Source of the DNA: an uncultured Acidobacteriota bacterium
GTDB lineage: Bacteria > Acidobacteriota > Thermoanaerobaculia > Multivoradales > UBA5704
Length of the DNA: 64,000 nucleotides
Direction: 5' to 3'
Assembly (NCBI GenBank): GCA_963752235.1
Contig: CAVVXL010000001.1
Location: 1,856,590-1,920,589, forward strand
This document shows positions 20,301 to 44,765 of this stretch, piece after piece; position 1 is the stretch's first letter, and each line of letters begins with the position of its first letter. Below the pieces are notes generated by a model that searched no databases, was not told the origin of the DNA, and saw nothing but the letters and a program-made list of their open reading frames with translations. A program made the translations under genes and the position numbers.

Positions 20301-23300
20301 AGCCGAAGTCGACGTCGGTGCGGTTCGCGCCGGCGGCGAGGGTGAAGGTCGCCTGGTTGGCCGTCGCGACGCCGTCGAGGTCGTAGGTCTCGGTGACCCC
20401 CGCCGGCAGCGACGAGACGCGCACCGTGTAGGTGCCGCCCGCCAGGTTGTTGAACGTGTAGTTGCCGTCGCCCGACGTGGTCGTCGTGCCCACCACGTTG
20501 TTCGAAGCGTCGAGCAACTGGACGGTGACGCCGTTGATCCCGGCCTCACCGGCGTCCTGGACGCCGTTGCCGTTGCTGTCGAGCCAGACCCGGTCGCCGA
20601 CCGAGCCGGTGTAGCGGTAGCCGAAGTCGACGTCGGTGCGATTGGCGCCGGCGGCGAGGGTGAAGGTCGCCTGGTTGGCCGTCGCGACGCCGTCGAGGTC
20701 GTAGGTCTCGGTGACCCCCGCCGGCAACGACGAGACGCGCACCGTGTAGGTGCCGCCCGCCAGGTTGTTGAACGTGTAGTTGCCGTCGCCCGACGTGGTC
20801 GTCGTGCCCACCACGTTGTTCGAAGCATCGAGCAACTGGACGGTGACGCCGTTGATCCCGGCTTCGCCGGCATTCTGGACGCCGTTGCCGTTGCTGTCGA
20901 GCCAGACCCGGTCGCCGACCGAGCCGTTGTAGCGATAGCCGAAGTCGACGTCGGTGCGGTTGGCGCCGGCGGCGAGGGTAAAGGTCGCCTGGTTGGCCGT
21001 CGCGATGCCGTCGAGGTCGTAGGTCTCCGCGACCCCGGCCGGCAGCGACGAGACGCGCACCGTGTAGGTGCCGCCCGCCAGGTTGTTGAACGTGTAGTTG
21101 CCGTCACCCGCCGTAGTGGTGGTGCCGACGATGTTGTTCGCGCCGTCGAGGAGCTGGACGGTGACGCCGTTGATCCCGGCCTCGCCCGCGTCCTGGACGC
21201 CGTTGCCGTTGCTGTCGAGCCAGACGCGGTCGCCGACCGAGCCGGTGTAGCGGTAGCCGAAGTCGACGTCGGTGCGGTTCGCGCCGGCGGCGAGGGTGAA
21301 GGTCGCCTGGTTGGCCGAGGCGACGCCGTCGAGGTCGTAGGTCTCGGTGACCCCCGCCGGCAGCGACGAGACGCGCACCGTGTAGGTGCCCCCCGCCAGG
21401 TTGTTGAACGTGTAGTTGCCATCGCCCGCCGTGGTGGTGGTGCCGACGACGTTGTTCGCGCCGTCGAGGAGCTGGACGGTCACGCCGTTGATCCCGGCCT
21501 CGCCCGCATCCTGGACGCCGTTGCCGTTGGCGTCGAGCCAGACGCGGTCGCCGACCGAGCCCGTGTAGCGATAGCCGAAGTCGACGTCGGTGCGGTTCGC
21601 GCCAGCGGCGAGGGTGAAGGTCGCCTGGTTGGCCGTCGCGATGCCGTCGAGGTCGTAGGTCTCCGCGACCCCCGCCGGCAGCGACGAGACGCGCACCGTG
21701 TAGGTGCCCCCCGCCAGGTTGTTGAACGTGTAGTTGCCGTCACCCGCCGTAGTGGTGGTCCCCACGACGTTGTTCGCGCCGTCGAGCAGTTGCACCGTCA
21801 CGCCGTTGATCCCGGCCTCGCCGGCATCCTGGATGCCGTCGCCGTTGGCGTCGAGCCAGACGCGGTCGCCGACCGAGCCCGTGTAGCGATAGCCGAAGTC
21901 GACGTCGGTGCGGTTGGCGCCGGCGGCGAGGGTGAAGGTCGCCTGGTTGGCCGAGGCGACGCCGTCGAGGTCGTAGGTCTCGGTGACCCCGGCAGACAGC
22001 GACGAGACACGCACCGTGTAGGTGCCCGGCGCCAGGTTGTTGAACGTGTAGTTGCCGTCGCCGGACGTGGTGGTGGTGCCGACGACGTTGTTCGCGCCGT
22101 CGAGCAGTTGCACCGTCACGCCGTTGATCCCGGCCTCGCCGGCATCCTGGACGCCGTCGCCGTTGCTGTCGAGCCAGACGCGGTCGCCGACCGAGCCGGT
22201 GTAGCGATAGCCGAAGTCGACGTCGGTGCGGTCCATACCAGCGGCGAGGGTGAAGGTCGCCTGGTTGGCCGAGGCGACGCCGTCGAGGTCGTAGGTCTCG
22301 GTGATCCCCGCCGGCAGCGACGAGACGCGCACCGTGTAGGTGCCGCCCGCCAGGTTGCTGAACGTGTAGTTGCCGTCGCCGGCCGTGGTGGTGGTGCCGA
22401 CAACGTTGTTCGCGCCGTCAAGCAGCTGCACCGTCACGCCGTTGATCCCGGCCTCGCCGGCGTCCTGGACGCCGTTGCCGTTGCTGTCGAGCCAGACCCG
22501 GTCGCCGACCGAGGCGGAGCCGCGATAGCCGAAGTCGACGTCGGTCCGCGTCTGGCCGCTGGTCAGGGTGACCGTGGCGGCGTTGGGAGTGCCCACGCCG
22601 TCGAGGTCGTAGGTCGGCGTCGTCACCCCGGCCGGCAGCGTCGCGGGGACGACCCGGACCGTGTAGGTATCGGCCGCGAGGCTGTTGAAGGTGTAGTTGC
22701 CGTCGCCGCTCGTGGTGGCGGTACCCACCAGGTTGTTAGACGAGTCGAACAGCTGCACCGTGACGCCGTTGATGCCGGCCTCGCCCGCGTCCTGGATGCC
22801 GTTGCCGTTGGCATCGTTCCAGACGCGGTCGCCGAGCGCAGCCGTCGCCGTCACCGGAGCGTGATAACCGAAGTCGATGTCGGTCTCAACGGTGCCGGCG
22901 GGAGCGGGGACGGTGGCCGCGTCGGGGGTGTCGATGCCGTCGAGGTCGTAGGTCTCGACCGAGCCCGCGGGGAGCGTCGTGGTGTCGACCTGGATGGTGT
23001 ACGTCCCCTCGGCCAGGTGGTCGAAGGAGTAGTGGCCATCCGCGCCGGTCACCGTGCTCTCCAGCGGGTTCCCGGAGTCGTCGTACAGGTTGACCGTGAC
23101 GCCGACGAAGCCGGGCTCATCGGGATCCTGGACGCCGTCGCTGTTGACGTCGTTCCAGACCCGGTCGCCGAGCGAGACGTTGCCCTGGTAGCCGAAGTCG
23201 TAGTCGGTGCGGATCTCGCCGCCGACGATGGTGAGCGCCGCCTGGTTGGGCGTCGCGACCCCGTCCTCGTCGAAGGTCGGCGTCAGGCCGCCCGGCAGCG

Positions 23301-25026
23301 TCGTGTCATCCACCCGCACCGTGTAGTTGCCGGCGGGGATGTTGGTGATCATGTAGTTGCCGTCACCGTTGGTCGTGTCCTGCGCGATGACGTTGCCGCC
23401 GCTGTCGAGCAACTGCACGACGACGTTGTTGATGCCCGGCTCGCCCGGGTCCTGCACGCCGTTGCCGTTGTAGTCGTTCCAGATGCGGTTGCCGACCGCG
23501 CCGGGCTTCTTGAAGCCGAAATCGCAGGTCAGCACGTTGTTGTTGGTGATCGTCGCCTGGCACTGCTCGGGAGTCGTCGGCGTGTAGCCCGAAAGGGTAC
23601 CGCCGCTCTCACCGTTGAAGTTGCTGGGCGCGATCTTGACCGTGTACGGGAACGCCTCGACCTCGAAGGAGTAGTGGCCGTCGGCGTCCGTATGAGTGGT
23701 CGCGACGAGCGCGTCGTTCTCGTCGAAGAGCTGCATCTCGACGCCGCCGATGCCGGGCTCTCCCGGGTCCTGGACGCCGTTGTTGTTCTCGTCGACGAAG
23801 ACCGTGTCGCCGAGCAGGTAGGGGTGCAAAGGCGCACAGGGGATCCCGGCCTGGCTCACGCAGAGCGCGCGGCCCGGCAGCAGCAGGGCGTTGAGGTTCT
23901 GCATGTCGACCCCCTGAATCCGCAGCAGGAAGATGCCGGGAGGGATCAGGTCGTCGGTGTGATAGTCCATCTGACTGCGATCGAAAGGATCGGTCGAAAT
24001 CTTGAACTGCTCCCACTCCTGGTTGCCCGAGGGGTTGTCGTTGGCGAAGGTGCGGCCGTCCGGGAAGATCAGGTCGTAGCGGATGGCCGGCGGCTTGGAA
24101 AGGTAGATCCCGGTGCCCGCCGGGCTGCGGTCGTCCGGAGGATTGCCGGTCGTGCCGCCGGAGCCCATGGCAACCCCTTCGGAAACCGTATCGCTGGTCG
24201 CCCAGACCGGCTTGAACGGCGCGTTGGGCGTATCCGGATCGTCGGTATCCTGGTTCGTGCCGTCGTAGCTGCCGTGATCGAAGTCGCCATCCCAAATGGT
24301 GATCGAACGCTGGCTCACCGCCTGTTCGAAATAGAAGTTGAAGTAGCCGTCGTACGTCGTCGGCGTGGCCGACGGAAAGCTCGGATAGACGATCTTGAGA
24401 TCGGAGTTTCCCGTCACGTTCGCGATATATGAAAACGGCTCGGGGGAAGGGAACAGGGAGGACCCGCCCACGTTGGCTCCACTCGTACGGAGCTTGAAGG
24501 CATTGAGGGTCACCGCCGGAGCTGTCAGCTTAATGCGCAGGAGATAGAAATAGTTGCCGCTCGGGGCCTTGGCCGACGGATCAGTATTGACGGTGTAGTC
24601 GATCCATGCGTTGTCCGGCATCGTAGTGGAGAGCTGGACCGACTGGCCGGAGAGCGGAGCGACCGTCGCCGCCGCGTGGTCGCGGTTCGGATCGGCATAC
24701 AGGGTGTAGCTGAAGACGGCGGGAGAACCCGTATCCCAATGGGAGAGAAGGGAGCTGTCGACTCCCTTGGCGTCGCCGTCGAAGATACCGACCGTGAAGG
24801 TCGCCGTCCCCTTGGGCACCGCGATCTCGAGATCTAGCGTCGGCTGGCTCAGGGTGACCAGGCCGGCGCCGTTGGCGATCGCGAGGAACCGCGCGTCCGT
24901 CGGATCACAACTCGGCAGGCAGTTGTAGGTGACCTGGGCCTGGACGGATACCGCCGCCAGGAACAGGAAGGCGATCAGCGCACCAAACTTCCATCGTAAA
25001 GACAGCATAAAAGAGCCTCCTCTCAT
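8398..25026 (-). CDS. giant secreted repeat protein (5,542 aa) made of tandem SdrD-B-like / Cna-B-type Ca-binding domains; putative adhesin/surface protein
   Basis: Single uninterrupted ORF. Signal peptide MLSLRWKFGALIAFLFLAAVSVQA; the probable true start is Met7 at 25008, preceded by GGAGG. About 38 repeats of ~115 aa (VGDRVWLDSNGNGVQDAGEAGINGVTVQLLD...GDGNYTF.NL..GTYTV...DFGY). Four ~175-aa insert domains. No recognisable C-terminal sorting signal. Confidence 0.85.
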   Translation of the reverse strand: MRGGSFMLSLRWKFGALIAFLFLAAVSVQAQVTYNCLPSCDPTDARFLAIANGAGLVTLSQPTLDLEIAVPKGTATFTVGIFDGDAKGVDSSLLSHWDTGSPAVFSYTLYADPNRDHAAATVAPLSGQSVQLSTTMPDNAWIDYTVNTDPSAKAPSGNYFYLLRIKLTAPAVTLNAFKLRTSGANVGGSSLFPSPEPFSYIANVTGNSDLKIVYPSFPSATPTTYDGYFNFYFEQAVSQRSITIWDGDFDHGSYDGTNQDTDDPDTPNAPFKPVWATSDTVSEGVAMGSGGTTGNPPDDRSPAGTGIYLSKPPAIRYDLIFPDGRTFANDNPSGNQEWEQFKISTDPFDRSQMDYHTDDLIPPGIFLLRIQGVDMQNLNALLLPGRALCVSQAGIPCAPLHPYLLGDTVFVDENNNGVQDPGEPGIGGVEMQLFDENDALVATTHTDADGHYSFEVEAFPYTVKIAPSNFNGESGGTLSGYTPTTPEQCQATITNNNVLTCDFGFKKPGAVGNRIWNDYNGNGVQDPGEPGINNVVVQLLDSGGNVIAQDTTNGDGNYMITNIPAGNYTVRVDDTTLPGGLTPTFDEDGVATPNQAALTIVGGEIRTDYDFGYQGNVSLGDRVWNDVNSDGVQDPDEPGFVGVTVNLYDDSGNPLESTVTGADGHYSFDHLAEGTYTIQVDTTTLPAGSVETYDLDGIDTPDAATVPAPAGTVETDIDFGYHAPVTATAALGDRVWNDANGNGIQDAGEAGINGVTVQLFDSSNNLVGTATTSGDGNYTFNSLAADTYTVRVVPATLPAGVTTPTYDLDGVGTPNAATVTLTSGQTRTDVDFGYRGSASVGDRVWLDSNGNGVQDAGEAGINGVTVQLLDGANNVVGTTTTAGDGNYTFSNLAGGTYTVRVSSLPAGITETYDLDGVASANQATFTLAAGMDRTDVDFGYRYTGSVGDRVWLDSNGDGVQDAGEAGINGVTVQLLDGANNVVGTTTTSGDGNYTFNNLAPGTYTVRVSSLSAGVTETYDLDGVASANQATFTLAAGANRTDVDFGYRYTGSVGDRVWLDANGDGIQDAGEAGINGVTVQLLDGANNVVGTTTTAGDGNYTFNNLAGGTYTVRVSSLPAGVAETYDLDGIATANQATFTLAAGANRTDVDFGYRYTGSVGDRVWLDANGNGVQDAGEAGINGVTVQLLDGANNVVGTTTTAGDGNYTFNNLAGGTYTVRVSSLPAGVTETYDLDGVASANQATFTLAAGANRTDVDFGYRYTGSVGDRVWLDSNGNGVQDAGEAGINGVTVQLLDGANNIVGTTTTAGDGNYTFNNLAGGTYTVRVSSLPAGVAETYDLDGIATANQATFTLAAGANRTDVDFGYRYNGSVGDRVWLDSNGNGVQNAGEAGINGVTVQLLDASNNVVGTTTTSGDGNYTFNNLAGGTYTVRVSSLPAGVTETYDLDGVATANQATFTLAAGANRTDVDFGYRYTGSVGDRVWLDSNGNGVQDAGEAGINGVTVQLLDASNNVVGTTTTSGDGNYTFNNLAGGTYTVRVSSLPAGVTETYDLDGVATANQATFTLAAGANRTDVDFGYRYTGSVGDRVWLDSNGNGVQDAGEAGINGVTVQLLDASNNVVGTTTTSGDGNYTFNNLAGGTYTVRVSSLPAGVTETYDLDGVATANQATFTLAAGANRTDVDFGYRYNGSVGDRVWLDSNGNGVQDAGEAGINGVTVQLLDASNNVVGTTTTAGDGNYTFNNLAGGTYTVRVVAATLPPGVAETYDLDGVATANQATFTLAAGANRTDVDFGYRLNGSIGDRVWLDGNGDGVQDAGEAGINGVTVQLLDAGSNVIATATTAGDGNYTFTGLAGGTYTVRIVTSTLPAGVAETYDVDGVATANQATVSLAPGANRTDVDFGYRTPPPVFTDCATGAAGDPAYNQFPSGHSFYLPGIGTDFIFTPIPGSFVANADGTAQLTGLLRSASNPNNAFTVVVHFTGYSASPPAGSPKKELLPPAYVENGGPVDPSTWFYYTGFTGTLTGIGNYAGAIIDMTQTGPAFEVGAGANGKNTHFGASGWFIWNVTSQPTVGANLLPTGQGDINIDLGDCPPATASVGDRVWLDTNGNGVQDAGETGINGVTIKLLDAYGVLVATTTTSGDGNYTFDTLIAGNYTVQVDAATLPAGVAETYDLDGVASANSASFSLATGAHRTDVDFGYRGTGSIGDRVWTDSNGNGVQDAGEAGINGVTVQLLDGASNVVATATTSGDGNYTFDNLNSGTYTVRVVAGSLPPGVAPTYDLDGIATANTATLTIAAGDHRTDVDFGYRATGSVGDRVWLDSNGNGVQDAGEAGLNGVTVQLLDASANVVATTATSGDGNYTFNNLAGGTYTVRVSSLPAGVAETYDLDGIATANQATFTLAAGANRTDVDFGYRNTGSVGDRVWLDGNGNGAQDAGEAGINGVTVQLLDGANNVVGTTVTAGDGNYTFNNLAGGTYTVRVSSLPAGVAETYDLDGIASANQATFTLAAGATRTDVDFGYRNTGSVGDRVWLDGNGNGAQDAGEAGLNGVTVQLLDGANNVVGTTVTAGDGNYTFNNLAAGTYTVRVSSLPAGVAETYDLDGVASANQATFTLAAGATRTDVDFGYKNTGSVGDRVWFDGNGNGVQDAGEAGINGVTVQLLDGSNNVVATTTTAGDGNYTFNNLAAGTYTVRVSSLPAGVAETYDLDGVASANQATFTLAAGTNRTDVDFGYRANGSVGDRVWLDSNGNGVQDSSEAGINGVTVQLLDSGSNVIASTVTAGDGNYLFGNLAGGSYSVRVVTATLPAGLAETYDLDGLGTANTASFALAAGANRTDVDFGYWTPPPGGSSCAMPSISDPALNNGPNGHSFYLPGIGTDFVFVPTAGGFTSNTDGTAHLTGTVRSKSDPNNAFTVDVQFSGYQSTPPAGSPKEELFASAYVANGGSIDPATWYYYTSYTGTLTGIGNYAGAVIRIDQTGPAFQVGAGANGKNGNFGGSGWYVWNVTSQPTAGANLQSTGQGDINVDLDGCSTVGSVGDRIWLDANGNGVQDSGEAGINGVTVQLVDAGGNVVAATITSGDGNYAFPATAGNYTVRVVPSTLPAGMTPTYDLDGIATANAASFTLAAGATRTDVDFGYKNKGSVGDRVWLDSNGNGTQDAGEAGINGVTVQLLDAANTVVATTTTSGDGNYTFDNLVAGSYTVKIVAASLPPGVTPTYDLDGVATANTASFTLAAGASRTDVDFGYKNTGSVGDRVWLDANGNGVQDSGETGINGVTVQLLDASNNLVATTTTAGDGNYTFSNLAAGSYTVKIVAASLPAGTAATYDLDGIATANQATFTLAAGASRTDVDFGYKNTGSVGDRVWLDANGNGIQDSGETGINGVTVQLLDAANNVVATTTTGGDGNYTFNNLAAGTYTVKIVAASLPAGTAATYDLDGIATANQATFTLAAGANRTDVDFGYKNTGSVGDRVWLDANGNGAQDAGETGINGVTVQLVNSGGTVVATTTTAGDGNYTFGNLAAGSYTVKIVPASLPAGTAATFDLDGIATANQATFTLTAGQNRTDVDFGYKNTGSVGDRVWLDSNGNGVQDAGETGINGVTVQLLDASNNLVATTTTAGDGNYTFNNLAAGSYTVKIVATSLPAGVAATYDLDGIATANQATFTLAAGASRTDVDFGYKNTGSVGDRVWLDANGNGIQDSGETGINGVTVQLLDAANNVVATTTTGGDGNYTFNNLAAGTYTVKIVAASLPAGTAATYDLDGIATANQATFTLAAGANRTDVDFGYKNTGSVGDRVWLDSNGNGAQDVGETGINGVTVQLVNSGGTVLATTTTAGDGNYTFGNLAAGSYTVKIVAASLPAGVTATYDLDGIATGNQAAVTLTAGQNRTDVDFGYKNTGSIGDRVWLDANGNGAQDSGETGINGVTVQLLDSSNNVVATTTTAGDGNYTFSNLAAGSYTVKVSGLPAGTAPTFDLDGIATANQATFTLTAGQNRTDVDFGYKNTGSIGDRVWLDTNANGAQDSGENGINGVTVQLVNSGGTVIATTTTAGDGNYTFSNLAAGSYTVKVSGLPAGTAPTFDLDGIATANQAAVTLTAGQNRTDVDFGYKNTGSIGDRVWLDANGNGAQDSGETGINGVTVQLLDSSNNVVATTTTAGDGNYTFSNLAAGSYTVKVSGLPAGTAETFDLDGVATANQATFTLTAGQNRTDVDFGYKNTGSVGDRVWLDANGNGVQDSGETGINGVTVQLVDASNNVVATITTAGDGNYTFSNLAAGTYTVKVSGLPAGTAETFDLDGVATANQATFTLTAGQNRTDVDFGYKNTGSVGDRVWLDSNGNGVQDSGETGINGVTVQLLDASNNVVATTTTAGDGNYTFSNLAAGTYTVKVSGLPAGTAETFDLDGVATANQATLTLAAGASRTDVDFGYKNTGSIGDRVWTDTNGNGVQDSGEAGINGVTVQLVNSGGTVIATTTTAGDGNYTFSNLAAGSYTVKIVPASLPAGVAATYDLDGTATANQAAVTLTAGQNRTDVDFGYRLTGSVGDRVWMDSNGNGVQDAGETGINGVTVQLLDSANNVVATTTTSGDGNYTFGNLAAGSYSVRVVTSSLPAGVVPSFDLDGIATANFASFTLAAGQNRTDVDFGYKTNGCAVGAPLDTVYGPSSGGQAFWFPGIVTDLVFTPNPGGFVANGDGTAHLTGTLRSVSDPTKSFTVDVAFSGLTNTVGSGSPKKELQASAYSENGGPVNTATWSYYTTYTGTLTGTGSYAGAVITIARTGPAFQTGIGANGKNVRFGGSGWFLWTVTHQPTSGSSFTTTGQGDINIDLDDCSTLGSVGDRVWLDTNGNGVQDSGEAGINGVTVQILDNNGVAFASAITAGDGSYTFDGIPAGTYSVKVITTALPAGVTPSFDLDGVATANKATFTLAAAQDRTDVDFGYKNAGSIGDRVWLDTNGNGVQDSGEAGINGVTVQLVNSGGTVIATATTSGDGNYTFSNLVAGTYTVKVVASTIPGGAAQTYDLDGLATANAATVTLAAGASRTDVDFGYRTSASVGDLVWFDLNGNGVLDSGESGLDGVTVQLLNSGGTVVATTTTSGGGLYNFSNLVAGSYSVRVVTSTLPLGGALSPSYDLDGIATANVAAFTLTGGQTRTDVDFGYKVNGCALAAALDATYGPSSGGQAFWFPGIVTDLVFTPNPGSFVVNSDYTAHLTGTLRSVSDPTRSFTVDVTFSGLTTAIGSGSPKKELKSTAYSENGGPINTASWYYFTSYTGTLTGTGSYAGAVVTIHNTGPAFQVGFGANGKNLNFGGSGWYLWTVTHQPTTGSSFQTTGQGDINIDLDDCGTLGSVGNRVWTDTNGNGVQDSGETGINGVTVQLLDSTGLAIASAVTATDGNYSFGGLTAGTYSVKIVTSTLPAGVTATYDLDGVSTAGKATFALTAGQSRTDVDFGYRGSLTIGDKVWNDTNSNGHLDSGEAGISGVTVQLLNSSGTVIATTTTNSSGSYSFGNLAAGTYTVKIVTSTLPAHWTETFDLDGLSTANQATFSLTASRTDVDFGYHCGS
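8401..23750. repeat. about 345-bp near-identical tandem coding repeats (with four ~525-bp interspersed insert units) inside the giant gene
   Basis: The same ~345-nt unit recurs dozens of times at high identity. It generates two giant spurious antisense ORFs (8410..16956, 17383..24432). Insert units lie at about 9050-9600, 10570-11120, 15950-16510 and 18770-19330. Confidence 0.8.
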
Positions 25027-34898: not shown

Positions 34899-35198
34899 AG
34901 CCGATTATCCTCCCGATCCCAGCCGATCTGAGCCCCGGCGGCTCAGAAAATCGGCTGTGCTAAAATCACCCGGCTTGAACGACGACCCTCCGAAACGACC
35001 CATCGCCCTCGCTCCCCCCGGCCTCCCGAACCCGCGGTCCCCAGGCTCAGCGGGTGAGCTGCGCCCGCACGGCCCTCGCGATCGGCGCGATCGCGAGGAG
35101 GGGCCCGGTTGAGCTTCTTCCTGCTCGCCGCCGCCCTTCCCGCCGCCGTGCCGGTTTCCCCGGCGCCGTCGGGCTTCGCAGCCCATCCCGGCTGGGGG

Positions 35199-36488
35199 AT
35201 GGTCCTCGGGCTCGTCCTGGTGGTCCTCAACGGCTTCTTCGTGGCCGCCGAGTTCGCCCTGGTCCGCATCCGGCCGACCCAGCTCGAGCCCTACGTCGCC
35301 GACGGGGTCCGCCGCGCCCGGCTGGCGCGGCACATGACCCGCCACCTCGACGCCTATCTCTCCGCCACCCAGCTCGGCATCACCCTCGCGAGCCTGGCGC
35401 TCGGCTGGGTCGGCGAGCCGGCGTTCTCTTGGCTGGTCCGGCCGCTGATCACCCCGCTGACCGCCAATCCCGACCTCGTGCACTCGATCAGCCTGGGCCT
35501 CTCCTTCCTCGTCATCACCATCCTGCACATCGTGCTCGGCGAGCTGGCTCCGAAGTCGATCGCGATCCGCAAGACCGAGGGGACGGCGCTGCTGATCTCC
35601 TTCCCCCTCTTCTTCTTCTTCAAGCTCACCTACCCGGCGATCTGGCTGCTCAACCACACCGCCAACCGCCTGCTCAAGCTGATCGGCATCCCGCCGGCGG
35701 CCGAGGGGGAGCTGGCGCATGACGAAGAAGAGCTGCGGCTGCTGCTCTCCTCCTCCAAGGACAGCCAGATCTCGCTGCAGAAGCGCGAGCTGCTCGACAA
35801 TATCTTCGAGCTGTCGCACCGCATCGCCCGGCAGATCATGCTCCCCCGCCAGGACGTGGTCTACCTGTCGACCGAGCGGCCGCTGGCCGAAAACCTGCGC
35901 ATCGCTCGCCGCAGCGGTCATACCCGCTTCCCGCTCTGCGACGGCGACCTCGACCACGTCATCGGCCTGCTCCACATCAAGGACATCTTCCACCGCGAGC
36001 GCCCGTTGACCGCGCTCACCGAGGTGGCCCGCGAGATCGCCTTCGTCCCCGAGACGCTCGAGCTCGACCGCCTGCTCAAACGGATGCGCACCGAGCGCTT
36101 CCACCTGGCGGCGGTGATCGACGAATACGGCGGCGTCTCCGGCATCGTCACCCTCGAGGACGTCATCGAGGAGATCGTCGGCTCGATCCAGGACGAGTTC
36201 GACGTCGAGCGCCCCGAGCTGGTCGAGAAGGGGGAAGGGGTCTGGGTGGTCTCCGGCGGCATGCTGGTCGAGGACCTCGAAGAGGCGCTGGGGATCGAGA
36301 TCTCCGAGCGCGACGACGACACCATCGGTGGCGTCGTCTTCTCCGAGCTGGGGAGGAACCCCGCCGTCGGCGACCAGGTGGAGCTGGGGCCGGCGACCGT
36401 CGAGGTCCTCGAGGTGCAGCTCAACCGGGTGGCGACGCTGCGGGTGGTGGTACACCCGCGGGAGACGGTGCCGCAGGACGAGGATTAG
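35199..36488 (+). CDS. CorC/HlyC (TlyC) family transporter-associated protein (DUF21 membrane domain + CBS pair + CorC_HlyC)
   Basis: N-terminal DUF21 helices (MVLGLVLVVLNGFFVAAEFAL). CBS pair region. C-terminal ...VEVLEVQLNRVATLRVVVHP transporter-associated domain. Track ORF starts at 35109 (TTG); ATG at 35199 preferred. Confidence 0.75.
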   Translation: MVLGLVLVVLNGFFVAAEFALVRIRPTQLEPYVADGVRRARLARHMTRHLDAYLSATQLGITLASLALGWVGEPAFSWLVRPLITPLTANPDLVHSISLGLSFLVITILHIVLGELAPKSIAIRKTEGTALLISFPLFFFFKLTYPAIWLLNHTANRLLKLIGIPPAAEGELAHDEEELRLLLSSSKDSQISLQKRELLDNIFELSHRIARQIMLPRQDVVYLSTERPLAENLRIARRSGHTRFPLCDGDLDHVIGLLHIKDIFHRERPLTALTEVAREIAFVPETLELDRLLKRMRTERFHLAAVIDEYGGVSGIVTLEDVIEEIVGSIQDEFDVERPELVEKGEGVWVVSGGMLVEDLEEALGIEISERDDDTIGGVVFSELGRNPAVGDQVELGPATVEVLEVQLNRVATLRVVVHPRETVPQDED

Positions 36489-37884
36489 CGCCGATCGCCT
36501 TGAGGTCGACCGGCCGGTTGGCCGGCGGCTCGGCGGTGGCGGCGGCCAGTCTGGCGCGCAGGGCCGCCCAGCGCTCGGGGGGCAGGCTGCCCTGGCTCCA
36601 GTGAGCGGCCACCACCCGCCGCGGACCGGCGGGCTCGACCCGCCAGCCGGGCAACCCGGCGAGCGCGCTCCTGAACTCCCCCGCGTCGGCGTCGGTGTCC
36701 CAGACGCTGACCCAGAGGAGCAGCCGGCCGCCGGCCTTCTCCGGAGTCTCATAGACCGCGAAGCGGTCGCCCCCCCAGCCGGCCGCCGCCGCGGCGGCCC
36801 GGTCGATGCTCTCGAGCCCCTCGCGCAGATAGATGCGGATCCCCAGCTCCCCCAGCTCCCCCTCGGCCGCCCGGGCGTATCCCGGCAGCTCCGCCGCGAG
36901 GTCGGGGAGGTGGACGACGACGGGATCGTCCCGCCGGCCATACCACTTCTCGGGGTGCAGGATCTGCTCGGTCGAGCGCGGCGGATCGGTGGTGAAGGCG
37001 TAGTCGAGCAGCTTCTGCCCTCCCTGCCGCCGCACCTCCAGGCAGAAGGCGGCCCCCTGGAGATAGCTGAACAGGAGGGTGTCGCGGAACCAGGCCGGCG
37101 CGGCGAGCATCTCCCGGGTGCCAGGGAGGTCGGGAGACGCCGCGATCGTCTTCCTGGAATCGCGCATCATGCCGCTCAGCACCCCCGCCATGCCGGGTGT
37201 CGTCTCGAGGTGCGTCCGCGCTTCGTAGTCGAGCATGGTCAGGGTGGCGTCCCCCTCGACCAGCGCCTCGCCGGCGGTCCCCGCGTCGGAGAGCGGATCG
37301 GGATTCTCGAAGCGGTCGAGGTCGAAGCTCTGGTCCTGGAGGGCGTGGGTCAGCTCGTGGACCAGCGTCATGTCCTGATCGACGTCCGGCTTCGCCGGCT
37401 GTCCCTGCCCTCCCTTGGACGCCGAGGACGCCGGCAGGTCGACCAGGGCCAGGTACTTGCGGTCCGGATCGTAGAAGCCGGCCACCTGGCTGCTCAGCAA
37501 CTCGGGGAGATAGGCGCGCAGGTCCATCGCCTCGGGGATCAGCCCGAACGCCTTGAGGCTCGCCGCGAAGGCGCGCAGCCGCTCCGGCGGATAGTCCTTC
37601 GCCATCGCCTCCACCACCTTCTCCTTCAGCGCCCGGGTTCCCAGCGAGCCCGCGGGGACCGGCCGCCGCGCCTTGAGGCCGCGGTAGGTCTCCGCCCCGC
37701 GCAGCAGCGCGGCGAGATGCTTCGCGCCCTCCGCCGGCAGAGGGGTGACGCCGGCGGGCAGCTTTGGATCTGGAGCGGGGGCGGCCGCCTCGGGCGTCGC
37801 CGGCACCGCCGCGGCCGGCCGTCCGGCGAGGAGCAGGAGGAGCGCGCAGCAGGGCGCGAGCCCGGAGGAGCTTCGACCCGGCAT
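36421..37884 (-). CDS. secreted putative zinc metallopeptidase (HExxH), paralog 1
   Basis: Signal peptide MPGRSSSGLAPCCALLLLLAG. LVHELTHALQDQ is an HExxH. Downstream EGDATL is a possible third-ligand Glu. Real start at 37884; the 831-aa track ORF is run-on. Confidence 0.55.
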   Translation of the reverse strand: MPGRSSSGLAPCCALLLLLAGRPAAAVPATPEAAAPAPDPKLPAGVTPLPAEGAKHLAALLRGAETYRGLKARRPVPAGSLGTRALKEKVVEAMAKDYPPERLRAFAASLKAFGLIPEAMDLRAYLPELLSSQVAGFYDPDRKYLALVDLPASSASKGGQGQPAKPDVDQDMTLVHELTHALQDQSFDLDRFENPDPLSDAGTAGEALVEGDATLTMLDYEARTHLETTPGMAGVLSGMMRDSRKTIAASPDLPGTREMLAAPAWFRDTLLFSYLQGAAFCLEVRRQGGQKLLDYAFTTDPPRSTEQILHPEKWYGRRDDPVVVHLPDLAAELPGYARAAEGELGELGIRIYLREGLESIDRAAAAAAGWGGDRFAVYETPEKAGGRLLLWVSVWDTDADAGEFRSALAGLPGWRVEPAGPRRVVAAHWSQGSLPPERWAALRARLAAATAEPPANRPVDLKAIGANPRPAAPSPAGVPPPAASPPG

Positions 37885-37886
37885 CG

Positions 37887-39869
37887 CTAGGGAGCGCTCT
37901 TGGCGCCCAGCCGGAAGGAGTTGAGCACCCGCAGCGCCGTCGCCTGCTCGCGGGGCCAGGATGCGGAGGGGCCGAGGGCGGTGAGGAAGAAGAAGTCCGA
38001 GTCGCGCGCCAGCGTCCGCAGCTCGCCGCGCACCTGCTGCCCCTTGAGCAGAGCCACGAAGCTGATCTCGCGCATCTTGATCACCGCCTGATCGTGCTCC
38101 AGCTCGTCCAGCCGGTGGAACTCGGTCATCGTGCTCTTCACCGCCCGCTCCACCATGCGGCTCATCAGGGAGGAGGCCGTATCCGCCGGCCGGATCTGGT
38201 AGCCGACGCCGATGCGGACCTCCCCGTCGGGGCTGGACATCGTCACCAGCAGCTGGGGATCGACCGGGTCCCGCGCGAGCCGCCACCCCTGGAGCGAGTC
38301 CGGCAGGCGGATCGAGATCCCCAGCGCCGGATTGAGATAGGAGCGCCCGTCCGCGCTCACCCTCCCGGCCGGGGCCCCGTCGGGGAGGAACTTCCGGACC
38401 TCGTCGAGCATCGCGATCCCGCCCCGCAGGTTGGCGAACGCCCTCGGGTCGGGCGGTTGCGGGGTGGCGCCGAGCGCCGCCAGGTTGAGGCTGCGGTTCG
38501 CCGGCCGGTCGGCCACCACCTCCTTGAAGCGCGCCCGCAGCTTGAGGAACGACGCCTCCGGCAGGGGACCCCGGCTGTCGCGGACCGCCAGCACCTGGAG
38601 CGGACCGAACGTCGACGTCCGCCAGCCTCCCACCGAGTCCAGCGCGTGCCTGAACTGCCCGGCCTCGAGCCCGTTGTCCCATTCGGACATCCAGAAGACC
38701 CGCCGCGCGCCCCCCTTCTGGTAGACCACGAAACGGTCGCCCGTCCACCCCGCCGCCGCGTCGGCGGCCCAGGCGGCGTCGTGAAGGCCCGCGCGCAAGT
38801 AGATCCGCAGGCTGAGCTCGCCCAGCGTCCCCTCGGCGGTCTTGCGGTACCCCGGCAGGTCGGCGCCGAGGTCCGGGAGATGAAGGACGACGGGGTCGCT
38901 GCGCCGGCCGTACCACTTCTCGGGGTGCAGGATCTGCGCGGTCGAGCGCGGCGGATCGGTGGCGAACGCGTAGTCGAGCAGGGTCTGGCCGCCCTGCCGC
39001 CTCACCTCCATGCAGAACGCGGCCCCCTGGAGATAGCTGAACAGCAGGGTGTCCCGGATCCAGGCCGGCGCCGCCATCATCTGCCGGACGCCGGGGAGGT
39101 CGGGGCTCCGCTCGATCAGCTTCTGCGGCTCCGCCGTCAGCCCGGCCAGGATCTCGCCGAGGCCGGGGAGCGTTTCGAGCCCCATCCGGAAGTTGTAGTC
39201 GAGCTCGGTCAGCGTGGCGTCCCCCTCGACCAGAGCCTTGCGGGACATCCGGACGTCGGACATCAGGTCGTGATCGGAGAGCAGGCGGCGCAGGTCGAAG
39301 CTCTGGTCCTGGAGCGCGTGGGTCAGCTCGTGAACCATGGTGCGGTTGCGCTCGAGCTTGCGCTCCCCTTCGCCCGCGTCTCCGCCCTTCTCTTCCTCCT
39401 TACCTTCTTTACCTTTTTTTTCGTTCTTCTCTTCCTTCGCGGGCTCCGCGGGGGGCGGATCGACCAGCGCCAGGTACTTCCGGTTGGGGTCGTAGTAACC
39501 CGCCACCTGGGTGCTCATCAGCTCGGGGAGATAGCGGCCGAGGTCCATCGTCTCGGGGATCAGGTCGAACGCCTTCAGACCGGCCTCGAGCACCGGCAGA
39601 TTCAGGGCCGAAGCATCCTTCCCGGCCGGCGCCGTGATCTGCGTCATCTGAGTGTTGAGCGCCGCGAGGCTGAGGGAGCCGGCGGTGACCGGCCCCTTCG
39701 CCTTCAGGCCGCGGTACTCTTCCGCCGCGCGCAGCAGCTCCGCGAAGTGCTTCGCCTCCTCCGCGGGGAGAGGAGACACACCTGCCGCCGGGGCGGCCGG
39801 CTCCGCCCGTCCCGCGACCAGCGGGAGCGCGCAGAACAGGGCCACGAACCGGAACCTTCGACTCGACAT
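37887..39869 (-). CDS. secreted putative zinc metallopeptidase (HExxH), paralog 2 with extra C-terminal domain
   Basis: About 55% identical to paralog 1 over the shared region (MVHELTHALQDQSFDL..., LFSYLQGAAFC..EVRRQGGQ.LLDYAF.TDPPRST.QILHPEKWYGRR). Lys/Glu-rich low-complexity insert before the HExxH. Ends 2 nt upstream of the paralog 1 start. Probable start at MSSRRFRFVALF. Confidence 0.55.
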   Translation of the reverse strand: MSSRRFRFVALFCALPLVAGRAEPAAPAAGVSPLPAEEAKHFAELLRAAEEYRGLKAKGPVTAGSLSLAALNTQMTQITAPAGKDASALNLPVLEAGLKAFDLIPETMDLGRYLPELMSTQVAGYYDPNRKYLALVDPPPAEPAKEEKNEKKGKEGKEEEKGGDAGEGERKLERNRTMVHELTHALQDQSFDLRRLLSDHDLMSDVRMSRKALVEGDATLTELDYNFRMGLETLPGLGEILAGLTAEPQKLIERSPDLPGVRQMMAAPAWIRDTLLFSYLQGAAFCMEVRRQGGQTLLDYAFATDPPRSTAQILHPEKWYGRRSDPVVLHLPDLGADLPGYRKTAEGTLGELSLRIYLRAGLHDAAWAADAAAGWTGDRFVVYQKGGARRVFWMSEWDNGLEAGQFRHALDSVGGWRTSTFGPLQVLAVRDSRGPLPEASFLKLRARFKEVVADRPANRSLNLAALGATPQPPDPRAFANLRGGIAMLDEVRKFLPDGAPAGRVSADGRSYLNPALGISIRLPDSLQGWRLARDPVDPQLLVTMSSPDGEVRIGVGYQIRPADTASSLMSRMVERAVKSTMTEFHRLDELEHDQAVIKMREISFVALLKGQQVRGELRTLARDSDFFFLTALGPSASWPREQATALRVLNSFRLGAKSAP

Positions 39870-39971
39870 ACGATCTCCTGCACCGACGATCTCCCGCACC
39901 GTAAGGCCAGCGTTCGGACTCAAGGGCCGGAAGCGGCATTATAGAAGCGAAACTGAGGCAAAATACGTTTC

Positions 39972-41275: not shown

Positions 41276-42142
41276 GTGGACGCGGAGCTCGGACCCAGGC
41301 ACCGGAGGATCGCCACCAACGGCATCCATCTGCATGCCGTCGAAGCCGGCCCTGAAGACGGACCGCTGCTGATCCTCCTCCATGGCTTTCCGGAGCCCTG
41401 GTTCGCCTGGCGGCATCAGATCGCGCCGCTCGCCGCCGCCGGCTTTCACGTCGTCGCCCCCGACCAGCGGGGATACAACCTCAGCGACAAGCCGGCGCGG
41501 ATCGCGGACTACAACCTGGAGACCCTGGCGCGCGACGTCGTGGGGCTGATCGACGAGGCGGGAGAGGAGAGGGCCTGCGTCGCCGGTCACGACTGGGGGG
41601 GCGCGGTCGGCTGGTGGCTGGGGGTCCGCCACCCGGAGCGGCTCCACAAGCTCGCCCTGCTCAACATCCCGCATCCGCGGGTTTTGGAGCGCGCCCTGCG
41701 CACCCGCTCCGCGCAACGCCGGAAGAGCTCCTACATGTTCTTCTTCCAGCTCCCCTGGCTCCCCGAGCGGAGCTTCCGGGCCGGCCGCTTCGCCCTCGCC
41801 GTGAAGTCCCTCCAGGGGAGCAGCCGGCCCGGCACCTTCAGCGACCCGGACCTCGAGCGCTACCGGCAGGCCTGGTCGCAGCCGGGCGCGGTCCGTTCGA
41901 TGATCCACTGGTACCGCGCCGCCCTGCGCGCGCGCCCCGAGTGGCCGGCCTCGCCCCGCGTCCGCGTCCCCACCCTGCTGCTCTGGGGCCGCAAGGACCG
42001 CTTCCTCGGCGAGGAGATGGCCCGGCCCAGCGTCGATCTCTGCGACGAGGGACGCCTCGAGCTCTTCGACGAGGCGACCCACTGGCTCCAGCACGAAGAG
42101 CCAGAGCGGGTGAACCGGCGGCTCCTCGCGCACTTCGCCTGA
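41276..42142 (+). CDS. alpha/beta-fold hydrolase (epoxide-hydrolase/haloalkane-dehalogenase-like)
   Basis: LLILLHGFPEPWFAWRHQ (HGxP oxyanion-hole motif). VAGHDWGGAVGW is a nucleophile elbow with Asp, typical of epoxide hydrolases. C-terminal His region. GTG start; the track ORF's earlier part overlaps LanC in another frame. Confidence 0.75.
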   Translation: MDAELGPRHRRIATNGIHLHAVEAGPEDGPLLILLHGFPEPWFAWRHQIAPLAAAGFHVVAPDQRGYNLSDKPARIADYNLETLARDVVGLIDEAGEERACVAGHDWGGAVGWWLGVRHPERLHKLALLNIPHPRVLERALRTRSAQRRKSSYMFFFQLPWLPERSFRAGRFALAVKSLQGSSRPGTFSDPDLERYRQAWSQPGAVRSMIHWYRAALRARPEWPASPRVRVPTLLLWGRKDRFLGEEMARPSVDLCDEGRLELFDEATHWLQHEEPERVNRRLLAHFA

Positions 42143-42172
42143 CGCCCCCCGAAGCCCTGCGCGCCCGCGCCG

Positions 42173-42560
42173 CGGCAGGCGACATCGGCGTACGGCAGCC
42201 GACAATCTCCCGCGGCAGGCGACCGCGGAAAATTGTCGGCTGACATTTCTCTACGGCAGGCGGCAATTCTCTACGGCAGCAGACCTTGTCTTATGGCAGG
42301 CGACATTGCGGCGCGGCAGCCGGCAATGCGTCACGGCAGTCGACCCTGAGCCAGGGAAGCTGACAACGCGCCACGGCAGGCGACGATCTCCCACGGCAGC
42401 GTACCGAATCAAATTGTCGGCAGACATTTCGCCACGGCAGCCGACATTCTCTTGCGGCAGCCCGACTTTTCCCAGAGCAGGCGACATTTCGCCAGGGCAG
42501 CCGCCAACCCGCCACGGCGGCTTGCCGAACCGCACTGTCGGCTGACATTTCACCGAATCG
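42173..42560. repeat. non-coding array of about 19 degenerate 20-bp direct repeats (core CGGCAG[GC]CGACA[AT]T...)
   Basis: Units of 17-26 nt each starting CGGCAG/CGGCTG recur head-to-tail. The sub-motif TGTCGGC(T/A)GACATTTC recurs three times (about 42233, 42413, 42534). The only ORFs here are repeat-driven. Confidence 0.6.
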
Positions 42561-42765
42561 GGGGATCGCGGCCCTCTTACAGGCGGCTACCTCATCATGG
42601 GACAATCCAAGGAAGGACGACTCCTCATCGTCTCCTACACGGAGCGATCCGGGCGCGTTCGCCTGATCAGCGCCCGACCCGCGACACGCCCCAAGCGGAA
42701 AACCTATGAAGAAGAAATCTAAGAGCGAGCTCGAAGCGCCGCGCCTTCGCGAGACGCCCGGCCGC

Positions 42766-43674
42766 CTAGATCTGCTGAATGGAATGACCCGTCCGGCGCA
42801 TCTTCGTCGCGTCGCGCAGGGGCGGGTCGCCGAACATGCGTGAATATTCGCGGCTGAACTGGGATGCGCTCCTGTACCCCACCCGGAAGGCCGCGCTCTC
42901 GGCCGTCTCGCCTTCCTCGGTCATCAGGCGCCGCGCCTCCAGCAGGCGGAGGCGCTTCTGGTACTGGATGGGGCTCACCGCGGTCACTTCCTTGAAGTGC
43001 TTGAAGAACGCCGAGCGGCTCATGTTCGCCGCCGTGGCCAGAGCCGCGACGTCGACCTCCTGGGCGAGCTCGGACTTCAGGCTGTAGATCGCCTGCGAGA
43101 TCCGGTGCATCCGGCTGCCGGAACGCACGAACTGCTGGATCGCCGGGCCGTCGGCCCCCTTCAGCAGGTGATACAGGATCTCGCGGACGACCAGCGGGCC
43201 GAGCACCGGCGCGTCCTCGGGGTTCTGGAAGAGATGCCCCAGCCGGACCGCGGCCTCCAGCATCGGATCGCTCGCCTTCCCGATGAACACCGCGCGGAGC
43301 GGAGTCTCCACCTCCTGAGGAAAGCCGTTCTCCAGCGCCGCCGCGACCTCGCTCAGAGCCAGCGCATCGAAGCCGATTTTCAGGCACAGAAACGGGCGCT
43401 CGGGCGTCGCCGAAAAGAGGCGGCTGGTCACCGGCAGATCGATCGGAGCCGCGATGTACTGCGCGCCCTCGCAGCGGTAGACCTCGCTCCCCAGCAGGAT
43501 CTCCTTGCACCCCTGGACGACGATGCTCAGCGCCGCGCGCCAATGCCGCTTCGTGCGCCGGTCGGGATGCGAGAACTTTATGCAATGGGTACCTGGAACG
43601 GGCGACTCGTGCAATCCCTCTCCGGGAGAGCCCAGATCCACGAGTCTCGCCAATTCGGAGCGCAGGTCCCGCAT
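42766..43674 (-). CDS. AraC-family transcriptional regulator
   Basis: C-terminal AraC-type double HTH (LATAANMSRSAFFKHFKEVTAVSPIQYQKRLRLLEARRLM...GYRSASQFSREYSRMFG) plus an N-terminal ligand-binding domain. Confidence 0.8.
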   Translation of the reverse strand: MRDLRSELARLVDLGSPGEGLHESPVPGTHCIKFSHPDRRTKRHWRAALSIVVQGCKEILLGSEVYRCEGAQYIAAPIDLPVTSRLFSATPERPFLCLKIGFDALALSEVAAALENGFPQEVETPLRAVFIGKASDPMLEAAVRLGHLFQNPEDAPVLGPLVVREILYHLLKGADGPAIQQFVRSGSRMHRISQAIYSLKSELAQEVDVAALATAANMSRSAFFKHFKEVTAVSPIQYQKRLRLLEARRLMTEEGETAESAAFRVGYRSASQFSREYSRMFGDPPLRDATKMRRTGHSIQQI

Positions 43675-43824
43675 CGATGTATCCTAAATCAGATTGGACG
43701 ATCAGGCAAGAAGCGTGGACTTTTGGGAATTTACCGCCCGCGGCCGCGACGGCATACTGATCCGCGAAGACAATCTGGCGGGTCACCCGGCCAGAACCAA
43801 GAAGCAGGAAGAAGGAGAGAGCCA

Positions 43825-44754
43825 ATGAAGATCTTTGTCACTGGAGCGACGGGGTATATCGGCCGCGTGGTCACGGAGCGGGCGCTCGCCGCGGGTCATA
43901 CCGTTCACGGATTGTCGCGGAGCGACGAAGGCGACGCAAGGTTGCAGGCGCTGGGCGCGACGGTGGTGCGCGGCGAGCTGGCCGGCCTGGAGGTGCTGCG
44001 GGAAGAGAGCGCCCAGGCGGACGCCGTGTTGCACCTCGGATTCATCCACGATTTCACCATGGACTACGAGGAGGTGCTGCGCGTCGACGCCGCGGCGGTC
44101 GATGCCCTGGCCGAGCCGTTGCGCGGCACCGGCAAGCCGCTGGTGATCACCTCCGGCACGGCCGTGGTCGAGCCCGATCCGGCGGGAGGCGAGACCAGGG
44201 AGGATTCGCCGCTGGCGCAGAGCTTCGTGTTGAGGCACCGCATCCGGTCCGAGCGTCATGCCTTGGACTGGAGCGAGCGCGGCGTCCGGGTGAGCGCCAT
44301 CCGCCTGCCGCCCTATGTCTACGGGCGCGGCGGCAGCTATTTCCTCCCCCTCCTGATGCGGAACGCCGCCGAGGCCGGCGAGTCCGTCTACGTCGGGGAC
44401 GGCAGCCTGCGCACGGTGGGGGTGCACGTGGACGACGCGGCGGAGCTCTACCTCCTCGCCACGGACCGGGCGAAAGCCGGGGAGGTCTTCAACGGCAGCG
44501 GGGAGATCGTCACCCTGCGGCAGATGGCCGAGGCAATCGGAGAGACGCTCCAGGTTCCCGTGCGCTCCGTCGGCCGCGACGAGGCGGCGGCGGTCTGGGG
44601 GGACTTCCTGGCGGCGTTCGTGCTGTTCGAGAACCAGCCTTCGAACCGCAAGGCGATCGAGCAGCTCGGCTGGCAGCCGACAGGGGTCGACATGCTCACC
44701 GACGTCGTGTCCGGGTCCTATCGCGAGCTGGCGGAGAAGCTCCGGCAAGGCTGA
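43825..44754 (+). CDS. NAD(P)-dependent oxidoreductase (atypical SDR / NmrA-like epimerase fold)
   Basis: MKIFVTGATGYIGRVVTE is a Rossmann GxxGxxG. GGAAGGAGAG RBS. Divergent from the AraC gene. Confidence 0.75.
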   Translation: MKIFVTGATGYIGRVVTERALAAGHTVHGLSRSDEGDARLQALGATVVRGELAGLEVLREESAQADAVLHLGFIHDFTMDYEEVLRVDAAAVDALAEPLRGTGKPLVITSGTAVVEPDPAGGETREDSPLAQSFVLRHRIRSERHALDWSERGVRVSAIRLPPYVYGRGGSYFLPLLMRNAAEAGESVYVGDGSLRTVGVHVDDAAELYLLATDRAKAGEVFNGSGEIVTLRQMAEAIGETLQVPVRSVGRDEAAAVWGDFLAAFVLFENQPSNRKAIEQLGWQPTGVDMLTDVVSGSYRELAEKLRQG

Positions 44755-44765
44755 CGCCGAAGTCC

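Follow-up and report, generated by a model that had tools for sequence, protein, structure and literature searches.

Tandem repeats that lie between genes and vary from strain to strain are an already known kind of bacterial sequence. Variable-number tandem repeats (VNTRs) of the mycobacterial MIRU/ETR type consist of intergenic head-to-tail units of tens of base pairs, and strains differ in them by whole-unit copy number and by the presence or absence of the array. The classic minisatellites of eukaryotes carry a conserved core within variable units. Iteron-type origins are recognized by tandem direct repeats of 17–22 bp, often with partial inverted copies, together with an adjacent rep gene, an AT-rich unwinding element, and a plasmid or secondary-replicon context; iterons usually number 3–12. 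The oriV of RK2, for example, has 17-bp iterons separated by 5–6-bp spacers, and R6K, F, P1, and pPS10 are other iteron plasmids. Type II/Ib partition centromeres (parC of R1 and pSK41, pCXC100, and parH of TP228) are likewise uninterrupted arrays of short direct repeats, which are 20 bp long in ParR centromeres. Small dimeric DNA-binding proteins bind cooperatively to the uninterrupted short direct repeats of repeat-type centromeres (PMC3074162).

Here, we describe an array of short direct repeats at positions 42173–42555 of a 64-kb window, i.e. the whole stretch of DNA that was analysed. The array is a lineage-specific, non-coding minisatellite in a hypervariable convergent gap of a Thermoanaerobaculia chromosome, and it evolves between strains by the gain and loss of whole units. 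It matches no described family, and its grammar, in which a conserved core is combined with inverted units, is mildly unusual. The arrangement of its units and its variation between strains are those of the MIRU/ETR-type VNTRs, but the units are much more degenerate, their 15-bp block being sharply conserved and their linker free, and the array has a 181-bp higher-order repeat, one inverted partial unit per block, and a single locus. With plasmid iterons and inverted-repeat operators it shares a conserved block followed by a short variable spacer, a period of ~20–22 bp, and a single orientation, and its partial inverted copies could serve as dimer sites; unlike plasmid iterons, it is chromosomal, lacks a Rep gene, an AT-rich unwinding element, and DnaA boxes, and comprises 16–26 units in the arrays compared. 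The uninterrupted run of short direct repeats recalls the type II/Ib centromeres, yet the array has no parA/parM or centromere-binding genes nearby and does not lie on a plasmid. The likeness to the Jeffreys-type minisatellites of eukaryotes (variable units with a short G-rich core; unequal exchange) crosses to another domain of life and another mechanism and is conceptual only. We tentatively read the array as a minisatellite whose units are constrained recognition sites, probably a landing pad that offers phased sites to a DNA-binding protein with its gene elsewhere, and hold this reading with less than even confidence; that the minisatellite is purely neutral or selfish has almost the same likelihood.

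Units, composites, and the 181-bp block

The array consists of 13 plain 20-bp units (A) and three composite 41-bp units (A′B), all in a single orientation (+ strand) and co-directional with the upstream hydrolase gene. Plain units follow the consensus CGGCAG-S-CGACA-W-T-nnnn-CCA and are always exactly 20 bp long; each composite joins a 24-bp A′ element (CGGCAG...CCGnnnnAAATTGT) to a 17-bp B element (CGGCWGACATTTCnCnA). GGCAG-type anchors recur in exact 20-bp steps at 42174, 42194, and 42214, from 42255 to 42395 (eight units), and from 42436 to 42516 (five units). The two breaks in phase among these anchors amount to +21 bp each, and both coincide with the sub-motif TGTCGGCWGACATTTC, which occurs at 42234, 42415, and 42536 only, its last copy standing at the array end. 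Self-similarity reaches 0.53 at a lag of 20 and 0.63 at a lag of 181, compared with a maximum of 0.38 in 500 shuffles. The first-pass annotation had counted about 19 degenerate 20-bp units and remarked on a recurring longer sub-motif. The exact 20-bp anchors and the self-similarity above shuffles bear out the observation; its count is obtained when each of the three composites is counted as A′ and B beside the 13 plain units, and the sub-motif was correctly seen. The range of 17–26 nt then given for the unit length reflects the splitting of composites and does not fit the plain units.

The composites open a higher-order repeat of 181 bp, made of one composite and seven A units, which is itself duplicated and is present as one full copy, one shortened copy, and one lone composite. 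Two leading A units (42173–42212; starts 42173 and 42193) precede the full copy (42213–42393), in which the composite at 42213–42253 is followed by A units starting at 42254, 42274, 42294, 42314, 42334, 42354, and 42374. The shortened copy, of 121 bp (42394–42514), has its composite at 42394–42434 and four A units, starting at 42435, 42455, 42475, and 42495; the third composite (42515–42555) stands alone and closes the array. Tandem Repeats Finder reports periods of 20, 40, and 181, the 40-bp period arising because position 7 of the A unit tends to alternate between G and C. Units are mutually 67–77% alike, and their variable portion is just 5–8 bp. The 12-mer CGGCAGSCGACA, with at most one mismatch, has 11 matches in the window, where 2.4 are expected, and eight of them fall within the array. 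Head-to-tail units in the range of about 10–100 bp in non-coding DNA, as found here, are what defines a minisatellite.

Every composite is quasi-palindromic, because A′ carries at its 3′ side a stretch whose reverse complement reads as the tail of an A unit followed by the beginning of the next core. The quasi-palindrome spans ~34 bp, is centred on GGCW, and places an inverted partial unit against a direct one; such inverted partial units amount to roughly one per nine units. The B cores lie at 42234–42249 (TGTCGGCTGACATTTC, at the centre of the quasi-palindrome CCGCGGAAAATTGTC-GGCT-GACATTTCTCTACGG), at 42415–42430 (TGTCGGCAGACATTTC), and at 42536–42551 (again TGTCGGCTGACATTTC), all on the + strand. 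Written as site patterns, the array motifs are CCACGGCAGSCGACA and TGTCGGCWGACATTT.

Comparison with relatives sets the limits of the array block at 42160–42585 (+ strand), as homology to strain L194 ends at 42159 and homology to strain L196 reaches 42585. The right flank of the block (42556–42585) is not repetitive and is common to L196, with one difference in 30 positions. The identical array is also present in L001, a short-read assembly made independently for this strain (L193 is the same contig), and is therefore not an assembly artefact; the contig of a second such assembly (L002) ends inside the first unit. The sole difference of L001 and L002 from the window is a homopolymer run of G5 or G4 at 42556–42560.

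A gene-content hotspot between convergent genes

The window is chromosomal, with genes for GroEL, asparagine synthase, a 5542-aa SdrD_B-repeat protein, and glycosyltransferases, and homologues of its hydrolase are annotated as Thermoanaerobaculia, phylum Acidobacteriota. Five related loci share a frame that runs CNNM – DUF8575 – LanC-like – hydrolase on the + strand, continues with a variable segment, and ends on the − strand with a histidine kinase, a sigma-54 response regulator, and MacB/FtsX. Because the hydrolase and the kinase operon converge, the array lies in a 3′-to-3′ gap, which is a gene-content hotspot. The alpha/beta-hydrolase gene (41276–42142, + strand, 288 aa) is the conserved left neighbour. 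Beyond it, the variable segment holds the array, a BrnT/BrnA remnant, an AraC gene, and an epimerase gene in the window; the array, hairpin repeats, and genes for two small Cys-rich secreted peptides in L196; an M23-peptidase remnant, the array, hairpin repeats, and a BrnA-like remnant in L200; an unrelated stretch of ~525 bp that contains an AT-rich palindromic motif, followed by the epimerase gene, in L194; and an intact M23 peptidase, a DUF433 pair, and intact BrnT/BrnA in L197. That this 3′-to-3′ gap also gathers toxin–antitoxin remnants, as a typical site for tolerated junk, is an observation counter to a landing pad.

At the same locus, arrays collinear with that of the window are present in strains L196 and L200; they differ from it by insertions and deletions of whole units, i.e. 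by the unit-number polymorphism between related strains that characterizes minisatellites and VNTRs. L196 is without the three units at 42435–42494, which L200 keeps, and both strains have two more units at the left, beside the stop codon of the M23 peptidase gene or its remnant. The array of L200 has about 26 units and four composites in the same 181-bp layout, with an extra 61 bp. The array has persisted through deletions that took genes on both sides of it. A deletion junction is marked by a truncated BrnT toxin pseudogene (42586–42722, + strand) outside the array: homology to L197 and Pfam show that the BrnT-derived sequence from 42586 is the 3′ half of a BrnT gene, with profile positions 47–75 of 77 left.

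The array is absent from L194, although this strain is as close as L196 and L200 (hydrolase dS ~0.12; flank identity ~94%), and it is also absent from more distant relatives with 76–81% protein identity. Homology between the window and L194 restarts at 43750; the window segment 42160–43749, which includes the AraC gene, is strain-specific and has the unrelated ~525 bp as its L194 counterpart, the neighbouring epimerase being kept. Since so close a relative is entirely without it, the array is dispensable. For array-less L197, examined for a de novo origin of the array at this place, homology fades within ~15 nt of the M23 stop codon.

These comparisons suit a neutral or selfish minisatellite, a serious candidate even if not our first choice, which would have originated by slippage just past a stop codon in a tolerant convergent gap, would change by unequal exchange, and would have no cellular function. 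Units are gained and lost between strains, as the decayed minisatellite among the options of the first-pass annotation would lead one to expect; the array is confined to one narrow lineage and missing from L194 and the more distant relatives; its location is a hotspot full of pseudogene remnants; and no partner gene is adjacent, none of the three array-bearing strains having a candidate binding-protein gene beside the array.

The same annotation had placed the array between the alpha/beta-hydrolase gene and an AraC-family regulator, and hinted at a link with the latter. Both neighbours are confirmed, the BrnT remnant between the array and the regulator having been overlooked, whereas the link has fared badly. 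The AraC_N/HTH_18 regulator gene (42766–43674, − strand) adjoins the array in the window strain only. Binding sites of the AraC/MarA type have a footprint of ~20 bp, so that the unit has the typical size of an AraC-family site, and the gene lies about 200 bp from the array in the window. The array lies, however, beyond the 3′ end of the AraC gene and not at its promoter; the array block ends at 42585 and the BrnT/BrnA remnant comes in between; and the gene, situated within the strain-specific segment that is replaced in L194, is absent at this locus from L196 and L200 as well as from L194. Because the other array-bearing strains have no AraC gene here, the link is unsupported. The comparative data have largely refuted an operator array for the adjacent regulator, which we consider very improbable, and whatever else the array may be, a tempting but wrong association is removed.

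Equally remote is a replication origin with iterons, or a partition centromere, of an integrated plasmid or mobile element. Conserved blocks of 15–17 bp with ~5-bp spacers, the ~20-bp period, and the inverted partial repeats would all suit it, and tandem direct repeats of iteron size with partial inverted copies (three quasi-palindromes) are indeed present. Against it, none of the ORFs checked on both sides is a rep, par, integrase, or transposase gene; the array is flanked by genes conserved on the chromosome (GroEL, asparagine synthase, LanC-like, two-component system); the GC content of the array, at 62–64%, leaves no AT-rich unwinding region; and blastn of the array against 72,556 plasmids and 50,697 phages gave no match. 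Adjacent genes for an NTPase and a centromere-binding protein, the mark of a partition centromere, were found neither among the window ORFs tested nor among the genes called at the related loci. A chromosomal replication origin or terminus was also rejected, as GC skew gave no signal and no dnaA, rep, or par gene was found.

Repeat class, coding potential, and possible transcripts

The four longest ORFs within the array have a GC content of 0.58–0.69 at all three codon positions, compared with a GC3 of 0.88–0.96 in the real genes of this region, and no gene caller called an ORF in any of the three arrays. The array is not coding, because codon-position GC is flat and because no reading frame can persist through a 20-bp period. 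Clustered regularly interspaced repeats of the CRISPR type, i.e. near-identical 23–55-bp repeats alternating with unique spacers of similar length, are rejected in view of the 20-bp period, the degenerate units, and the lack of spacers. Membership in the REP/BIME group or another dispersed family is rejected too, as the units are direct rather than palindromic and further copies are lacking from the 64-kb window and from seven related loci. On all three points, and in finding no sign of a structured RNA (see below), the analysis agrees with the first-pass annotation. A Chi-like or otherwise over-represented oriented motif was likewise dismissed: outside the array, CGGCAG and ACGGCAG are neither enriched nor strand-skewed. 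Sigma-54 promoters require GG-N10-GC (TGGCAC-N5-TTGC), and the units, with GG-N11-GC, are one nucleotide too long; the best sigma-54-like units are TGGCAG-N6-TTGC at 42294 and CGGCAG-N6-ATGC at 42314. A scan of the array for promoter-like and terminator-like sites found none.

Possible roles at the RNA level would follow from the position of the array 10–45 nt past the stop codon of a co-directional gene in all three strains, with no terminator-like site in between; for the window, this interval is the one after the hydrolase stop codon. The array might then be transcribed as a 3′ untranslated region (UTR), ancestrally of the M23 peptidase and here of the hydrolase, in which the repeated units with ACGGCAG would serve as a multi-site sponge or platform for an RNA-binding protein, or the quasi-palindromes would form hairpins that stabilize or terminate the transcript. 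All units are oriented alike, as such a role would have it, and U-rich tracts follow the B elements, including a run of seven U in L200. There is also a strong local hairpin at 42196–42242 (+ strand), in which A unit 2 pairs with the inverted part of composite 1 through 20-nt arms that are 90% complementary (RNA free energy −30.9 kcal/mol, z = −4.6), and which shows one apparent compensatory change relative to L196 (CGCGG/CCGCG versus CACGG/CCGTG). This hairpin is strong in the window strain, yet L196 and L200 prefer other folds, and a conserved terminator hairpin is rejected for that reason. The whole array, moreover, folds no better than its shuffles do, whichever strand is taken (z = −1.4 and −1.6), Rfam yields no credible match for the array (best E at least 1, far below gathering scores), and the terminator scan was empty. 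We consider a role at the RNA level improbable.

Two described RNA classes invite comparison. CsrB and RsmZ resemble the array in length (~350–400 nt) and, in the case of CsrB, in having ~18–20 short repeated motifs, but they carry many GGA motifs, mostly in hairpin loops. The array has no GGA in loops and just two GGA motifs altogether (42227 and 42353), and is therefore not a CsrA/Rsm-type sponge. The repeat RNAs of type III toxin–antitoxin systems (ToxI-like) are near-identical repeats of 34–45 nt followed by a terminator and a ToxN-family toxin gene. They are alike in that tandem repeats lie upstream of a ribonuclease toxin gene, a ribonuclease-toxin remnant being found downstream of our array. 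This class is nonetheless rejected, since the 20-nt units are degenerate and not near-identical, and since what lies downstream is the remnant of a type II toxin, the truncated BrnT, which a deletion brought next to the array and which the other strains lack.

Constraint on the core and its possible causes

In a set of 32 plain units without redundancy, G3, A5, and G6 never vary and G2, C4, G9, C11, and A20 are conserved at 84–94%, compared with merely 41–62% for positions 13–17. The unit thus has a strongly conserved block of ~15 bp, CCA-CGGCAG-SCGACA, and a ~5-bp linker that varies freely, and its length is held at exactly 20 bp despite near-randomized linkers. Rates of change differ across unit positions (p = 0.002), and by parsimony (Fitch, on a UPGMA tree of units) only 5 of 89 changes fall in GGCAG, where ~22 are expected (p = 1.6e-6), it being understood that the units share ancestry, which qualifies such constraint statistics.

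Comparison between strains points the same way. In collinear segments of the window and L200, 4 of 63 core sites differ, against 51 of 183 other positions (p = 2e-4), a contrast that could partly be an alignment artefact if aligned units are paralogous. Overall, the two arrays diverge by 22%, at or above the synonymous rate, as a neutral array would. For the non-core positions in particular, a divergence from L200 at or above the synonymous rate is an observation counter to a landing pad. Between the window and L196, 12 of 323 sites differ (3.7%), none of the 12 in GGCAG or C11. The synonymous divergence of these two strains is 7.4% in the hydrolase alone (p = 0.07 versus the array) and becomes 10.7% when the LanC-like gene is added (p = 2e-4).

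Several of these values sit badly with neutrality: the ~4-fold deficit of changes in GGCAG, the slower divergence of the array than of synonymous sites between the window and L196, and the conserved A at positions 5 and 20, which opposes the GC-rich drift of the genome. Turnover of repeats alone does not predict the deficit, because duplication of whole units copies linkers as faithfully as cores. The conserved core could nevertheless reflect the mechanics of turnover, through slippage microhomology or short conversion tracts, with no factor recognizing it; gene conversion in short tracts seeded at the core could mimic selection. We give this explanation of the core the same standing as the neutral origin of the array as a whole, that of a real possibility falling well short of probable.

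The conserved ~15-bp block, the free ~5-bp linkers, and the fixed 20-bp period are most simply explained by sequence-specific recognition, and it is on this combination that our tentative preference for a landing pad is based. The conserved block would be the recognition site, and the array would present many such sites in phase to a DNA-binding protein that is sequence-specific and has its gene elsewhere in the genome. On the direct repeats, this protein would probably sit head to tail at intervals of two helical turns, and it would probably occupy the quasi-palindromes as a symmetric dimer; the bound complex might silence, insulate against convergent transcription, or organize the DNA. Direct repeats phased at about two helical turns, with occasional symmetric sites, match the grammar of plasmid iterons and ParR-type centromeres, minus the adjacent rep or par gene. 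The conserved core accordingly lends some support to the earlier suggestion of iterons or regulator half-sites, whose partner gene was not found beside the array; the landing pad is itself weakened because no such gene adjoins the array and because the close relative L194 is without it. More speculative, and in our estimation unlikely, is an orphan chromosomal loading platform, in which a protein filament or superhelical complex would nucleate on 16–26 phased 15-bp sites interspersed with dimer-type palindromes, or else a 3′ UTR that titrates an RNA-binding protein.

If the core is a recognition site, the locus would offer an easily testable, iteron-like, chromosomal multi-site array in a poorly studied phylum, and ~380 bp of DNA could serve as bait to capture the binding protein. 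A loading platform or 3′ UTR sponge, if real, would represent a regulatory or architectural element not described before, found in Acidobacteriota at the edge of a gene-content hotspot. As only a minisatellite, the array would still be of use as a strain-typing marker and as a marker of the recombination-prone hotspot between the hydrolase and the two-component operon, and would be a known source of assembly breaks, such as that of the short-read contig that stops in the first unit.

Searches for related arrays were made with several patterns. Four GGCAG anchors at 20-bp spacing retrieved microsatellites and chance matches from the genome collection, none related among the matches listed; on viral contigs, neither this pattern nor the B motif yielded anything beyond unrelated or chance-level matches; and the B motif followed by GGCAG found nothing in the metagenome scan. 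The lack of a second motif copy in the window or related loci, and of true relatives in the metagenome, plasmid, and phage searches, is a further observation counter to a landing pad. A looser metagenome pattern of three anchors returned 45 loci with zero true relatives. We treat five arrays (L253, L246, L258, L244, and L275) as selected by the search pattern: in L258, L244, and L275, the resemblance is limited to the positions that the pattern imposes, and L253 and L246 are 20-bp arrays with a GGCAGCCGRCA core in ORF-poor contigs of eukaryotic look.

Variable cargo between the hydrolase and histidine kinase genes

Set against five related loci (L194, L195, L196, L197, and L200), the gap between the alpha/beta-hydrolase and histidine kinase genes (window 42143-44765) is a gene-content hotspot, with cargo that differs in each strain examined, including that of the window. 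The cargo types comprise an M23 peptidase, a DUF433 pair, BrnTA, AraC, an epimerase, and small Cys-rich peptides. The last are found in L196, a locus that carries the array, where two small ORFs of 103 and 53 aa (L196:7508-7819 and 7969-8130), each with an N terminus resembling a signal peptide and a C terminus rich in Cys, occupy the place of BrnT, AraC, and the epimerase; no Pfam match is on record for either.

Beside the array, the window retains a truncated BrnT ribonuclease-toxin pseudogene on the forward strand (42586-42722), which matches positions 47-75 of 77 of Pfam BrnT_toxin and of which the C-terminal 41 aa are the sole surviving part. It is followed by the start of a BrnA-like antitoxin (approximately the first 10 codons; 42706-42736), and approximately 30 nt beyond this fragment, at 42766, lies the 3' end of AraC. 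The BrnT/BrnA pair is intact at the same position in L197, a locus without the array.

In related strains, variable cargo is bordered by a recurring element of approximately 80 bp, the long arms of which form an inverted repeat (GCCTTCGAGAGACG...CGTCTCTCGAAGGGCAGGACCT); it is present at L196:7315-7400 and 8160-8215, L200:7895-8140, and L194:7340-7400. The element resembles REP or MITE repeats; the 64-kb window holds no copy.

Other genes of the window

Two or three tandem paralogues of approximately 480-690 aa lie upstream of the LanC-like gene and point away from it (window 34905-39923, reverse strand; also in L194, L196, and L200); their copy number differs among these strains. They are labelled DUF8575 in the gene tables of related loci, and the two window copies tested (34905-36941 and 37887-39923) had no match in the Pfam set searched. 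A giant ORF of 5542 aa (8398-25026, reverse strand), composed of approximately 33 tandem repeats of 318-324 bp each, dominates the local GC skew; one segment matches SdrD_B/CarboxypepD_reg/SpaA-type Ig-like domains, and the protein is presumably a surface adhesin.

Observations on the array and on other repeats

Immediately to the right of the array, the window reads GGGGG (42556-42560), whereas two assemblies of this strain built from short reads have GGGG; either the homopolymer is truly polymorphic in length, or the source assembly contains a long-read error in this run.

At the locus of the array, L194, which lacks it, has an AT-rich palindrome, AAACA(TT/AA)TGTTT, repeated approximately seven times at a spacing of approximately 20-21 bp (L194:7085-7245), and two pairs of these copies form perfect hairpins of 13-17 bp. 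The grammar is similar to that of the array, in that direct copies precede an inverted copy, but the two are unrelated in sequence.

An intergenic architecture, likewise unrelated to the array, recurs in six diverse metagenome contigs (L267, L261, L248, L272, L282, and L284) returned by a loose three-anchor pattern scan: irregular 6-8-mers of the GGCAGG(A/C) type make up a purine-rich array, after which come a short AT-rich core, often resembling ATGACAAATGATAAATG, and the array in reverse complement, the two arrays together constituting very long imperfect inverted repeats.
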